Positions 57,236 through 63,945 of a stretch of DNA of 64,000 bases are shown one piece after another. Positions within the stretch are counted from its first letter, which is position 1; the number at the start of each line of letters is the position of its first letter. The DNA is taken from IMG/VR virus record IMGVR_UViG_3300032007_003791; one strand, given 5' to 3'. The position numbers and the translations under genes were made by a program. Below the pieces are notes generated by a model that worked only from the letters and a program-made list of their open reading frames with translations, ran no database searches and had not been told where the DNA came from. Source of the stretch: a virus. Taxonomy: Duplodnaviria; Heunggongvirae; Uroviricota; Caudoviricetes.

Positions 57236-58996
57236 ATGATTGTGTGTAATCATATATCACGATTGTTTGTCATGGTGCGGGCTGTTCTGCTGTCCGTGTC
57301 GTGCCTGATGGTCTTTTCCTGCGGGAAGGAAGTCATTCCGGAGACGTACACTGACAACGAGATTGCCCTGTTCCCCAAGAGCATCGACGGAGGGCTGCAG
57401 ACCAAGGCGGTGACGACGCTCTCGACGCTTGAGTCCAGCGGTTTCCGCGCCTCCGCCACCACGGTGTCCGGCGATACCGAGACGCAGGTGTGGACGAACT
57501 CGCTCTTCACGAAGTCCGGAGAGCTGTTCAAGGGCGGACGTTACTGGCCGTCCACCAATCGCGGGTACAGGTTTTACGGAAGCTCGTCTGCGTTGACGTT
57601 CACCTCTTCCGGCAACACCGTCACGGTTCCGGAAGGGAACACCGCCGATGTCGTGTGCGCCTATAAGGCCAGCTCGAACTACATGACTGCCAACAGCCTG
57701 GATTTCCATCATATCCTGTCGAAGATAACGACCGTGCGCGTCAACGCCGAGTCGCCGTGTACCATATCCAATATCACCATCAGCCTGGTTGATGCCAAGA
57801 CCGGCGGGGTGTACAACCTTCGCAGCGGAGCGTGGAGTAGCAAGACGCCAGCTTCGTCGTCGAATAGGCAGCTTTACCGCAACGCGGGTTCCGTCGCCGC
57901 AGGGAGCGGACATACGGGTTCGGATAACGATTACCTCTTTGTTCCGGGGAGTTACTACTTGCAAGCATCTTGGACGGCGACGGCAGGAGAGTATACGAAG
58001 ACTTATACTAACAAGCTGTCCACCTCGGCTGTCACCTTCGCTGCGGAGAATCAGTATTCCGTAACGGCTAATTTGTCCGGCGACCCGACTAAAATCGAGT
58101 TCGCGGTTTCCGTTGAACCCTGGGGTTCGAACACTGTTGCCATCGGGACCTTCCCGATATACTCCGGGGCTATCAGGGCTCCGTACAGTGTAAGTGATTC
58201 GAAGACGGTCTATTTTGCTCAAGGTAACCTGCAGGCGACCTACAACGGTTCTTCGTGGACGTGGAAGTTCGCGGACTATCAGTGGGATTACGTGGGGAAT
58301 GCAGCCGCGAATATCTCCATCAATGGCGACGGGACTGTTTCATCGAATGGTACGGTAGACCTGTTCGGCTGGGTGGGAGCCTCGTCCACCTGGACGGGGG
58401 TTGCAATGTATGGGATTAGTAATTCCGAAACGACAAACAGTACAAATACTTACGGTAACGTTATTACTGAGTCCTTAAAGGCTGATTGGGGTTCCATCCC
58501 GGGGGTTGTGTCCGCTTATGGTGACGGCTGGTTCACGTTATCGTCGACCGAGTGGAAATACGTCATCAGCGACCGCACTTCTGGCGCCACCGTGAACGGC
58601 ACTCCGAACGCCCGTTACACCGGGGCGACCATCAACACGGACGGGACTGGCGTCAACGGTATCATCCTTTTCCCAGACGGAGTGACCATCGCCTCGAGTG
58701 AGGTTACTGCTTGGGGAACAGTGAACAGCACGAGTTCCTGGGCGACGAAATGCACCACCGCCCAGTGGTCCGCCCTCGAATCGAAGGGTTGTGTGTTCCT
58801 TCCCGCTGCGGGCTACCGTTACGGCGCGAGTGTCTACAGTGTAGGGTCCTACGGCTACTACTGGTCCAGTACGCCGTACTCCGGCAATGTTTACTACGCG
58901 TACCTCGTGTACTTCTACTCGGGCGGCGTGTACCCCCAGAACGACTACGGCCGTTACGGCGGCTTTTCTGTTCGTCTGGCCCGCGACGTTAACTGA
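57236..58996 (+). CDS. Fimbrillin-domain tip adhesin with a C-terminal CLec-type DGR-target-like domain
   Basis: Lipobox VFSC; fimbrillin domain; FAQGNLQ, DLFGW, FLPAAGYR...GYYWSST...GFSVRL. Confidence 0.88.
   Translation: MIVCNHISRLFVMVRAVLLSVSCLMVFSCGKEVIPETYTDNEIALFPKSIDGGLQTKAVTTLSTLESSGFRASATTVSGDTETQVWTNSLFTKSGELFKGGRYWPSTNRGYRFYGSSSALTFTSSGNTVTVPEGNTADVVCAYKASSNYMTANSLDFHHILSKITTVRVNAESPCTISNITISLVDAKTGGVYNLRSGAWSSKTPASSSNRQLYRNAGSVAAGSGHTGSDNDYLFVPGSYYLQASWTATAGEYTKTYTNKLSTSAVTFAAENQYSVTANLSGDPTKIEFAVSVEPWGSNTVAIGTFPIYSGAIRAPYSVSDSKTVYFAQGNLQATYNGSSWTWKFADYQWDYVGNAAANISINGDGTVSSNGTVDLFGWVGASSTWTGVAMYGISNSETTNSTNTYGNVITESLKADWGSIPGVVSAYGDGWFTLSSTEWKYVISDRTSGATVNGTPNARYTGATINTDGTGVNGIILFPDGVTIASSEVTAWGTVNSTSSWATKCTTAQWSALESKGCVFLPAAGYRYGASVYSVGSYGYYWSSTPYSGNVYYAYLVYFYSGGVYPQNDYGRYGGFSVRLARDVN
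58811..58980 (+). other. DGR variable-region-like segment VR1
   Basis: All 15 Tyr codons are TAC and putative variable codons are mostly NNC, as expected from adenine mutagenesis of AAC codons. Confidence 0.75.
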
Positions 58997-59039
58997 TCTC
59001 GTCCAGTAATTCTGGTTGTTAGAAAATGGATCTTAAGAT

Positions 59040-61122: not shown

Positions 61123-63945
61123 ATGAAATATAAACACAGTCTCAGTAAAGATATGAATACAACGAAAAATACCTTCCCCTTTATTGGTGTATTTGCCGCC
61201 TTCATGGTGGCCCTGGCCAGTGCCTCCTGCATGAAGGAGGTCCCGGATATGCAAGTGGTTAGCCAGCCCTCGGACGCTATCGTCTTCGGCGTGGACGACT
61301 CGTTCAGGGCCGAGGTGCAGACGAAGGCGACCGAGGTCACCTCGCTATCCTCGTTCTACGTTACAGCCGTTACCGGCTCTGCAGGGAGTGAGAGCCAGGT
61401 CTGGAACTCGGTCCAATTCAGCCAGGTCGCGGGTAGTAGCCCGGCGACGTATGCCGGTAACAAGTACTGGCCAGCGACCAATCCCAGTTATAAGTTCTAC
61501 GGTTCGAACGTGGCCCTGAACTACGCCGCCGGGGGGACGTACGTCAACGCTTCCAACGCGACGGATGTCGTGTGTGCCTACCTGTCCAGTCCGACCTACA
61601 ACACGAAGAACACGCTGACCTTCGAGCATATCTTCGCAAGGCTCTGCCGCGTGGACATTGTTGCGGCCTCCGGCTATACGCTGTCCAACATCTCGTTGCG
61701 GATTACTCCGAAGACCGGCGGCACGTATAACCTCCGGACCAAGGAGTGGTCGTCGGTAGCGACCGGCACCGCCACCACTATCGCTTCATCGACCGGGGCG
61801 AATAATAATGATATTTTCTGCGTCCCTGGGATATACAGCATCACGGCGTCGTGGGTGGCGAGGGACGCCAGCGGCGCATCCGTGACGCACACCAACGAGG
61901 TATGTAACGTGCCCCTGACGGGGGGTAAGACCAACAATATCAGCTGTGTCCTCGGAGGTGATATCACCTTCGGCATGGATCTGCAGGACTATGCGGATTA
62001 CGATTACAGGGACAATCTCGCATACCTGACGTTCTACTGCGACGAGGCGGGAACGATTGGGTGGAAGTGCTCGAATGCCTCCATCGCAAGGACTATCCAG
62101 TATAGCAAGGACTTCGGTGCGACATGGACCGACCTTACGTCTACGACCAGTGGTGCGACAGTATCTGTCAGTGCAGGGGATATTGTGTGGTTCAAGGGGA
62201 GCAATACGGGGTATTCGAACGGCTCTTACTATAATCAATTCACTTTATCCAACAAGGCTCATGTATATGGTAATGTGAATTCCTTGACTGGGAATAATAC
62301 ATCGGTAAGCGAGTATTGTTTCAAGAGGTTGTTTTATAATTGTTTTAACCTTTATACATACGAACACAAGAAGATTGTTCTTCCTGCTACGACGCTGGCG
62401 CTCCGCTGCTATGAAGGCATGTTCAATGGTTGTTTCTCACTTACCACGGCGCCAGAGCTTCCTGCTACGACGCTGGCGAGCCGCTGCTATTACAGTATGT
62501 TCCAGGGTTGCAACTCTTTGACGTCTGCTCCTGCGCTCCCCGCCACGACGCTGGCAGATTGCTGCTACGATTCCATGTTCATTGGTTGCACGAGCCTCGC
62601 TATAGCCCCGGAACTCCCAGCAACGACGTTGGCGGATTACTGCTACGAAAATATGTTCTATGGTTGCTCTTCATTGACTACGGCTCCTGCACTTCCCGCC
62701 ACGACGCTGGCACTTTGCTGCTACGAAAATATGTTCTATGAATGCACCTCCCTCACCACAGCACCAGTGCTCCCTGCTACGACGCTGGCGAACACCTGCT
62801 ATTACAGCATGTTCCAGGGTTGCTCCTCTTTAACGTCTGCACCTGCGCTCCCCGCCACGACGCTGACGGACTACTGCTACGATTCCATGTTCATTGGTTG
62901 CACGAGCCTCGCTATAGCCCCGGAACTCCCAGCAACGACGCTGACGGACTACTGCTACGAAAATATGTTCTATGGTTGCTCTTCATTGACTACGGCTCCT
63001 GCACTTCCTGCTACGTCATTGGCGGCTGGCTGCTATGAGAGCATGTTCTCTGGTTGCTCCTCACTTAATTACATCAAGGCTCTCTTTACAACAACTCCAT
63101 CTGATGAATATACGTTAGATTGGGTCTCCGACGTCGCCCCCACAGGCACCTTCGTGAAGTCCGTCGCTGCGACGTGGAACGTGACGGGTGACGACGGCGT
63201 GCCTACAGGGTGGACGGTGATGACTGAGTATCAGGCGTACCTTACCAACGGCCATGCGTTTGTGGACTTGGGACTGAGAAGTAACGGTAACAAGATTCTC
63301 TTTGCAACCATGAACGTCGGAGCATCTTCCCCGGAAGAATACGGCTATTACTTCGCCTGGGGCGAGACCTCTAAACGCTATACCAGCATAAGTGACGACT
63401 CTGTTGTAGGCGGTTCTTTCGAATGGTCTAACTGCCCTTATCACACCGGTAGTACCTATAACACCGGCTGGAGTAAGTACATTCCTACCGGTAAGGAGTC
63501 TTACGGTGTGGTCGACAACAAACTGACTCTCGAAGCCGGTGATGACGTGGCATCCGCCCTCTGGGGCGGCAGCTGGCGTATGCCTACCGCCGAAGAACTC
63601 TGCATGCTGATTAACGGAGATGGTTCCAGCACCGACTACGATGAAGCAGACAACGTTACCTACTCCTGGACTAACGACTACAACGGCACAGGCGTACATG
63701 GTTACATCATCACCGGTAAAGGCTCTTTCTCCTCGGCCTCGCTCTTCCTCCCTGCTGCTGGCAACTGCGATGTCACGGACCTGTACGACGCTGGAGTCTA
63801 CGGCTACTATTGGTCCCGCACGGTGAGCTCGGGCTACCCGGCTTACGCCTGGCTCCTCTTTTTCGTGGATGGCGGCCAGCTCATGGACAGCAACGACCGT
63901 TACCGCGGTCAATCCGTCCGGCCCGTGTTGGTTATTCCTGAGTAG
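61123..63945 (+). CDS. Tip adhesin: fimbrillin + BspA-like LRR array + CLec-type DGR-target-like domain
   Basis: Lipobox SASC (start may be MNTTK at 61153); about 9 LRR units; VDLGL..FATMNVGASSPEEYGYYFAWGET, WRMPT, FLPAAG...YWSRT...GQSVRPV. Confidence 0.88.
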   Translation: MKYKHSLSKDMNTTKNTFPFIGVFAAFMVALASASCMKEVPDMQVVSQPSDAIVFGVDDSFRAEVQTKATEVTSLSSFYVTAVTGSAGSESQVWNSVQFSQVAGSSPATYAGNKYWPATNPSYKFYGSNVALNYAAGGTYVNASNATDVVCAYLSSPTYNTKNTLTFEHIFARLCRVDIVAASGYTLSNISLRITPKTGGTYNLRTKEWSSVATGTATTIASSTGANNNDIFCVPGIYSITASWVARDASGASVTHTNEVCNVPLTGGKTNNISCVLGGDITFGMDLQDYADYDYRDNLAYLTFYCDEAGTIGWKCSNASIARTIQYSKDFGATWTDLTSTTSGATVSVSAGDIVWFKGSNTGYSNGSYYNQFTLSNKAHVYGNVNSLTGNNTSVSEYCFKRLFYNCFNLYTYEHKKIVLPATTLALRCYEGMFNGCFSLTTAPELPATTLASRCYYSMFQGCNSLTSAPALPATTLADCCYDSMFIGCTSLAIAPELPATTLADYCYENMFYGCSSLTTAPALPATTLALCCYENMFYECTSLTTAPVLPATTLANTCYYSMFQGCSSLTSAPALPATTLTDYCYDSMFIGCTSLAIAPELPATTLTDYCYENMFYGCSSLTTAPALPATSLAAGCYESMFSGCSSLNYIKALFTTTPSDEYTLDWVSDVAPTGTFVKSVAATWNVTGDDGVPTGWTVMTEYQAYLTNGHAFVDLGLRSNGNKILFATMNVGASSPEEYGYYFAWGETSKRYTSISDDSVVGGSFEWSNCPYHTGSTYNTGWSKYIPTGKESYGVVDNKLTLEAGDDVASALWGGSWRMPTAEELCMLINGDGSSTDYDEADNVTYSWTNDYNGTGVHGYIITGKGSFSSASLFLPAAGNCDVTDLYDAGVYGYYWSRTVSSGYPAYAWLLFFVDGGQLMDSNDRYRGQSVRPVLVIPE
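63760..63927 (+). other. DGR variable-region-like segment VR2
   Basis: NNC-rich codons (GAC, TAC, GTC, AGC, CTC, GGC) within the conserved frame; ends CAATCCGTCCGGCCCGTG. Confidence 0.65.

Follow-up and report, generated by a model that had tools for sequence, protein, structure and literature searches.

How does the putative tip gene of a bacterial pilus come to show in its codons the mark of a diversity-generating retroelement (DGR) on a stretch of DNA in which neither a reverse transcriptase (RT) nor a template repeat (TR) is found? The question is raised by the IMG/VR record IMGVR_UViG_3300032007_003791, of which 64,000 nucleotides were analysed (this whole stretch is referred to below as the window), and more precisely by the gene for the lipoprotein P0001, whose last codons form a variable region (VR), here called VR1 (Table 1). 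The locus belongs to a rumen member of the Bacteroidales, in which it forms part of a conjugative element or plasmid. On the evidence of its codons and of its relatives, VR1 is very probably of DGR origin, whether it is still connected to a source of variation or has been cut off from it, and we give a probability of about 0.5 to the reading that it is written in trans, now or in the recent past, by a DGR that is not adjacent to it. The data show a DGR-type footprint in VR1, homology to confirmed DGR targets, and a window that contains no cassette; writing in trans is what we infer.

The reading frame of P0001 ends in the peptide quoted, with its coordinates, in a preliminary description of this DNA, and all 15 tyrosines of VR1 (residues 527-574) are encoded by TAC, as that description had stated; elsewhere in the gene, tyrosine is encoded by 17 TAC and 8 TAT (Fisher p = 0.014). 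For glycine the effect is more pronounced, with GGC used for nine of ten residues in VR1 versus 11 of 49 in the rest of the gene (p = 1e-4). When the relatives are aligned, the proteins are conserved up to the motif GCVFLPAAG, after which a fixed scaffold alternates with hypervariable residues until GFSVRL. At the 20 columns that are hypervariable in the family the window shows no A- or G-ending codon and 18 C-ending codons, which places it among the most extreme of 105 relatives, while 62% of the comparable codons in the rest of the P0001 gene end in C. In the codon table of these 105 relatives, columns whose amino-acid entropy exceeds 3 bits keep mostly C at the third base, the third base is mostly T at columns 535, 551, 564 and 566, and A- and G-ending codons are freely used at the variable columns upstream of the VR. 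The A/G-ending fraction is continuous across the family, from clean profiles such as that of the window up to 0.56.

The window was compared with the three nearest of those relatives whose DNA could be obtained, and the differences within VR1 were found to be confined almost entirely to codon positions 1 and 2. Of the VR codons replaced relative to the 1414-aa gene of the sister element L143, 20 of 21 retained their third base, whereas upstream 20 of 50 did so (p = 8e-6); relative to the gene for P0005 these values were 15 of 17 and 20 of 42, respectively (p = 0.004). Position-restricted variation among homologues, whose absence the preliminary description would have counted against its claim, is present here. 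Synonymous changes were rarer in the VR scaffold than upstream (3/43 vs 41/157 in the comparison with the L143 gene, p = 0.004), a result repeated in a second comparison with a close relative (4/48 vs 39/171, p = 0.017). In the L143 comparison an A was present in one of the two partners at 74% of the VR differences versus 45% of those upstream (p = 0.003), and the L143 copy retains AAC or AAT where the window reads TAC, AGT or GGC. Taken together, the restriction to positions 1 and 2, the scarcity of synonymous changes in the scaffold and the excess of A indicate that several VRs were rewritten from nearly the same template after these genes had diverged; the VRs of the sister loci L001-L003, L143 and L144 appear to share such an origin. 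Judged from these alignments, ordinary selection or recombination does not explain how VR1 differs from its close relatives. A strain-level test on the pair L001/L143 was dropped, the C-terminal modules there being recombinant. The sister elements (L001/L003, 8723-8920 and 13377-13589; L143, 15339-16169) carry three lectin-tipped genes per pilus operon, whose three lectin copies have a clean profile of codons ending in a pyrimidine (NNY), an intermediate one and a fully decayed one (A/G-ending fractions 0, 0.05 and 0.31).

Bona fide DGR cassettes are present in the same domain family. A 68-residue profile of the VR segment, searched against 301 Bacteroidales genomes, gave matches in 182 of them, with at least 20 copies in some; matching copies located in short open frames just 3' of a long open reading frame (ORF) proved to be template repeats. 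Three genomes (G129, G310 and G007) contain genuine VR/TR pairs, in which 96-100% of the mismatches fall at template adenines. G129 has two such pairs (23/23 and 24/25 mismatches at template A), one of which adjoins a 390-aa RVT_1 protein with the motifs IGNLTSQ and YVDD. In G007, all 23 mismatches are at template A, the cassette includes a bAvd gene, and the target is a kinase-Big_2-Lcl_C protein. G310 (Prevotella sp. RGIG1544, contig C39, locus L175) has 20 of 20 mismatches at template A in a cassette with the order target, 182-aa ORF, TR and 395-aa RT. The G310 cassette lies on a contig of 4.1 kb and the G129 cassettes lie at contig ends.

Further observations were made on the make-up of these cassettes. 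The ORF of about 180 aa located between target and template (L175, 2156-2704, minus strand; L135, 4159-4701, plus strand; L137, 489-1049, plus strand) is conserved between G310 and G129, has no Pfam match and is not Avd-like, G007 having bAvd instead. In the G007 locus (L176, 1924-3975 and 5035-6621), the target joins a Ser/Thr protein kinase to Big_2 and Lcl_C domains, and the template repeat is contained in the 5' end of the open frame for the 528-aa RT. Genomes G049, G186, G249 and G224 are among those with at least 20 copies of the lectin-like C-terminal segment; with the G129 RT as query, three of these four yielded no RT, and a candidate VR and TR pair in G249 proved to be two adjacent paralogues.

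VR1 occupies the last 60 codons of its gene and stands on a module that is homologous to the confirmed targets (41% and 50% identity), the nearest being the G310 target, which shares 50% identity with P0001 over 300 aa. In G310, TR and VR are homologous over 201 nt, starting at GCVFLPAAG and reaching the end of the target. Both proteins have the scaffold CVFLPAAG ... YWSSTP ... GFSVRL, and in a codon alignment the TAC, GGC and AGT codons of the window fall on AAC or AAT codons of the G310 template. At column 535 the window has AGT where the template has AAT, and AAT is the template codon at all three positions alignable to columns 535, 564 and 566. The strong DGR footprint claimed in the preliminary description is thus strongly supported by the relatives' cassettes and templates as well as by the restriction of changes to codon positions 1 and 2, and the AAC-rich template that it had obtained by setting the variable bases back to A agrees with the real templates of the relatives. 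The two loci differ in that the G310 target is directly followed by its own 182-aa accessory ORF, TR and 395-aa RT. Nor is the G310 template that of VR1, to which it shows 68% identity with 59% of the mismatches at non-adenine positions.

The preliminary description had found no RT or template next to the gene, and this holds for all 64 kb: the window contains no RT-type YxDD motif, no adenine-tolerant copy of VR1, and no homologue of the G129 RT or of its accessory protein. A copy differing from VR1 at A positions beside an RT, which the same description had proposed to look for, was accordingly not encountered in the window. Translated in six frames, the window has only two copies of the domain and no third, and the Pfam lists of genes called to about 10 kb downstream of it include no RT. 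Among 84 related loci no adenine-biased repeat pair was found within 10 kb, and the same is true for L143 and L144; the 3' end of L143 was considered as a cut DGR cassette and rejected.

Under the reading that we prefer, by which VR1 is written in trans, the RT of a non-adjacent DGR would copy an AAC/AAT-rich template repeat while misincorporating opposite adenines, and the resulting cDNA would replace the last ~200 nt of the target gene. Codon positions 1 and 2 of about 25 codons would be randomised in this way on the ligand-binding face of a C-type-lectin-like domain, which would sit at the tip of a type V (Mfa/FimA-type) pilus whose genes are carried by a conjugative element. Template and RT would be located elsewhere, be it on a more distant part of the same element, in the host chromosome or on a different mobile element. 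Such an arrangement fits the whole subfamily, because none of the relatives compared has a cassette within 10 kb.

A competing explanation, which we regard as not much less likely, is that VR1 is an orphan: it would have been written in an ancestor or donor, after which the cassette was lost or the tip module moved away from it by recombination or transfer, and would by now be static, changing by ordinary mutation and module exchange only. Several results favour this explanation and at the same time weigh against ongoing writing in trans. No TR or RT was recovered in any search. There was no template in 184 related loci (1.6 Mb), and a template pattern in which each C, G and T of VR1 was also allowed to be A gave no match in 401 Bacteroidales genomes, nor in metagenome or viral contigs, the metagenome set being a weak blank as it does not contain VR1 itself. 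A 24-mer from the 5' scaffold had four metagenome matches, all to unrelated static paralogues, and none in viral contigs. The contigs of the source sample hold a single VR1 sequence, though contigs cannot reveal minor variants; short contigs of this sample that overlap VR1 at 80-85% identity are other paralogues and were rejected as template. A contig from a different sample departs from VR1 chiefly in the variable codons.

The genomes of the relatives tell a similar story, since clean VRs without a visible template are common. About ten of them have VRs as clean as VR1 and no matching template in their own assemblies, three of these having a DGR with its own adjacent target. RVT_1 was tested for in five relatives' genomes and was absent from four, including the isolates HUN156 and X. 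brevis, which do have members of the family. A DGR is present in G004, with no template for the subfamily VR of that genome; G311 and G314 have DGRs with adjacent targets of their own, whose templates mismatch the clean subfamily VRs of the same genomes; and G315 has a DGR-type RT at a locus without sequence in common with its subfamily loci. Two remote copies in G310, L150 (G310:C22, 1513-1713) and L164 (G310:C27, 1492-1692), match the G310 template exactly over the first ~20 nt and the last ~35 nt, and in between show 25 adenine-type and 14-15 non-adenine mismatches to it, several of which are common to both copies. Given these non-adenine mismatches, the resident G310 template did not write them, and a sister template that was lost or has diverged seems to have targeted them. 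The continuum from clean to fully decayed NNY profiles in the family likewise suggests that orphaning and decay are frequent.

The sequence downstream of VR1 points in the same direction. GC-rich hairpins of at least 8 bp follow the two confirmed VRs of G129, that of G310 being less clear, and VR1 has no hairpin of such strength. The small hairpin CCAG-TAATT-CTGG noted after the stop codon in the preliminary description does exist (Table 1), but with a stem of 4 bp it is no more than expected by chance and adds nothing to the case; in a related strain, four nucleotides (ACTT) are inserted behind position 59012, within its 3' arm. The initiation of mutagenic homing (IMH) site is definable only with a template in hand.

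On the other side, an orphan would be expected to decay, and the VR1 profile has not: its counts of C-ending codons and of TAC stand well above the 62% of C-ending codons in the rest of the gene, and synonymous changes are fewer in its scaffold than in the upstream domain. Both observations argue that the writing was recent. The blank searches are moreover tempered by the nature of the genomes compared, most of which are metagenome-assembled genomes (MAGs), from which mobile DGRs easily drop out because they are often left unbinned, as illustrated by the small contig that carries the G310 cassette.

It is improbable, in our estimation, that the diversity of VR1 arose mainly by recombination or gene conversion among paralogous lectin-like modules and not by reverse transcription. 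Modules are clearly shuffled in this family, and some genomes hold at least 20 copies. P0003 and P0123-P0125 have N-terminal 300 aa at 96% or near identity to P0001, followed by different C-termini (a FISUMP-type domain in P0003), and the C-terminal module of P0005 is nearer to another L143 gene than to its positional counterpart. The swap takes place at the pilin/lectin junction AIGTFP (residues ~300-308, at about 58140-58160 in the window). Exchange of modules cannot, however, give changes limited to codon positions 1 and 2 (with 20 of 21 third bases kept), and it leaves the excess of A in one partner unexplained; both features are expected under adenine mutagenesis. Most likely recombination acts in addition to adenine mutagenesis. 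The second copy of the segment in the window, VR2 (Table 1), has 61% DNA identity to VR1, weak Lcl_C and FISUMP matches and a milder bias towards C-ending codons (six TAC and one TAT; GGC in five of seven Gly); at this identity, one template cannot have written both.

Least probable of all is that no DGR was ever involved and that VR1 is simply a lectin-like binding site with many Tyr, Gly, Ser and Asn residues, whose C-ending codons are due to codon bias: Tyr/Ser/Gly-rich binding loops are indeed common, the whole gene favours C-ending codons, and many family members are static, with identical loops in orthologues of several species (L010, L016 and L017), but the bias of VR1 far exceeds that of the rest of its gene, its variable codons coincide with template Asn codons in homologous confirmed targets, third bases are kept in nearly all replaced codons, and the four T-dominant columns stand amid C-dominant ones, three of them where the G310 template has AAT.

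Two known systems come close to the arrangement proposed here. DGR-diversified tips of type V pili were described on Bacteroides integrative and conjugative elements (ICEs), namely BfrT, BthT and BunT (Macadangdang et al. 2024, PMC11601372). As in the window, a conjugative element encodes a tip-pilin-like lipoprotein 3' of the genes for anchor and stalk, and the VR lies at the C-terminus of a C-type-lectin-like fold with rewriting of AAC-type codons. There the target has an RT, an accessory gene and a TR right beside it, whereas none of these is found here in 57 kb upstream or about 15 kb downstream; their hosts are human-gut Bacteroides and the present host is one of the rumen Bacteroidales. 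Non-adjacent targets are represented by the TvpA paralogues of Treponema denticola, and 29 targets at distances above 100 kb were reported for ten DGRs (Wu et al. 2018, PMC5758913). Those target genes, like the one proposed here, lie far from RT and TR and are rewritten in trans; they differ from VR1 in having been recognised by their match to a known template with only A-to-N changes, VR1 having no known template.

The product of the target gene is predicted to be a tip-like adhesin. P0001 has an N-terminal signal peptide closing with a lipobox-like VFSC; translation from a second possible start, at 57272, gives a 574-aa form (P0002). No match above threshold was obtained for P0001 in Pfam and NCBIfam. 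Its assignment as a putative tip adhesin of a type V pilus is based on this Cys-bearing signal peptide, on the surrounding plus-strand operon, which encodes DUF3575, DUF5119 and three Mfa_like_1 (fimbrillin-like) proteins, and on the full-length relative P0018 (43% identity), in which Mfa_like_1 is recognised at residues 64-297 (E 3.7e-14). Two more tip-like genes bearing arrays of leucine-rich repeats (LRRs) follow downstream in the pilus operon. Bovine gut metagenomes are the source runs, and sister loci encode Rep3, ParA, integrase and SLT. The first operon is directly followed, at about 100 bp to 10 kb past the right end of the window, by genes for a tyrosine integrase and a PrsW protease and by another pilus operon of the DUF3575/FimA type.

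Table 1. Coordinates of the P0001 gene, its C-terminal segments and associated features in the window.
Feature	Position	Strand	Basis
586-aa surface lipoprotein P0001, type V pilus tip-like adhesin (putative)	57236..58996	+	ORF and translation
Conserved part of the C-terminal ligand-binding module (residues ~306-517)	58151..58786	+	55-80% identity in hundreds of proteins
Stretch expected to be homologous to the template repeat (residues 518-586)	58787..58993	+	TR/VR pair of G310 takes up the greater part of the corresponding stretch and stops a few codons short of its end
VR1 proper, variable NNY codons among fixed scaffold (residues 527-577)	58814..58966	+	Codon table, codon statistics and pairwise tests
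4-bp hairpin CCAG-TAATT-CTGG past the stop codon, probably meaningless	59003..59015	+	Weak fold
VR2, second and more distant copy of the C-terminal segment, at the end of a 940-aa LRR tip protein	63745..63945	+	VR profile, E 2e-12

The last ~280 residues of P0001 form a module that recurs, at the identities given in Table 1, behind unrelated N-termini (Mfa-like, Big_2, LRR_5 and others), and some of its relatives are labelled DUF8237 (PF26707), Lcl_C (PF07603) or Fib_succ_major (PF09603). The last 45 residues of P0001 align with Lcl_C at 17.9 bits, under the Pfam cut-off of 34.9; membership of VR1 in Lcl_C (PF07603) or FISUMP (TIGR02145) was therefore rejected, the curated threshold not being reached and NCBIfam giving no match, and VR1 is a distant relative of these families at best. 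An AlphaFold model of the module (pLDDT 77, pTM 0.82) had no significant match to the PDB by Foldseek, nor did a profile search of PDB sequences give a significant match. The best VIA structural matches were all of the C-type lectin (CLec)/formylglycine-generating enzyme (FGE) type and weak (Z 3.7-4.9): the Lcl C-terminal domain, EgtB, three proteins of DGR systems (Mtd, TvpA and TaqVP), lectin domains of the invasin type and the Bacteroides fimbrial protein 4eps, with the Lcl C-terminal domain 8q4e as joint top match (Z 4.9). We read the module as having a C-type-lectin/FGE-like fold, for which the structural support is weak and the homology support good. Its likeness to the Lcl C-terminal/DUF1566 and FISUMP domains thus consists of the weak Lcl_C alignment, the occurrence of PF07603 and PF09603 in relatives and the 8q4e match; these domains are without the long conserved N-terminal part (DUF8237) of the P0001 module. 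No protein match was found among PLSDB plasmids and INPHARED phages, the 90%-identity cluster of P0001 consists entirely of N-terminal fragments and offers no strain-level VR series, and a search for shorter P0001 homologues gave none above 75% identity.

Reports of DGR-diversified tips of type V pili on conjugative elements are recent and come from human-gut Bacteroides, in every case with the cassette beside the target; this class of targets is now extended to rumen Bacteroidales. The locus provides a clean case of a VR that was freshly written and has no cassette in about 70 kb, in a subfamily of which 84 loci are also without an adjacent cassette. It is conceivable, though we hold it to be rather doubtful, that rumen Bacteroidales possess a family of type V pilus operons on plasmids or ICEs with cassette-less tip modules, which a DGR on another replicon, whether the host chromosome or a different mobile element, rewrites in trans. 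If true, a transferable adhesin could plug into the hypermutation engine of a new host or of a passing element, and the clean, template-less VRs present in many species would be the traces of such hit-and-run encounters. A template on another replicon would make this a case of cross-replicon targeting of a mobile adhesin, while if there is no template the locus would help to gauge how frequently DGR targets are orphaned and how rapidly they decay. Such rates bear on surveys that count DGR activity by RT/TR/VR triplets alone.

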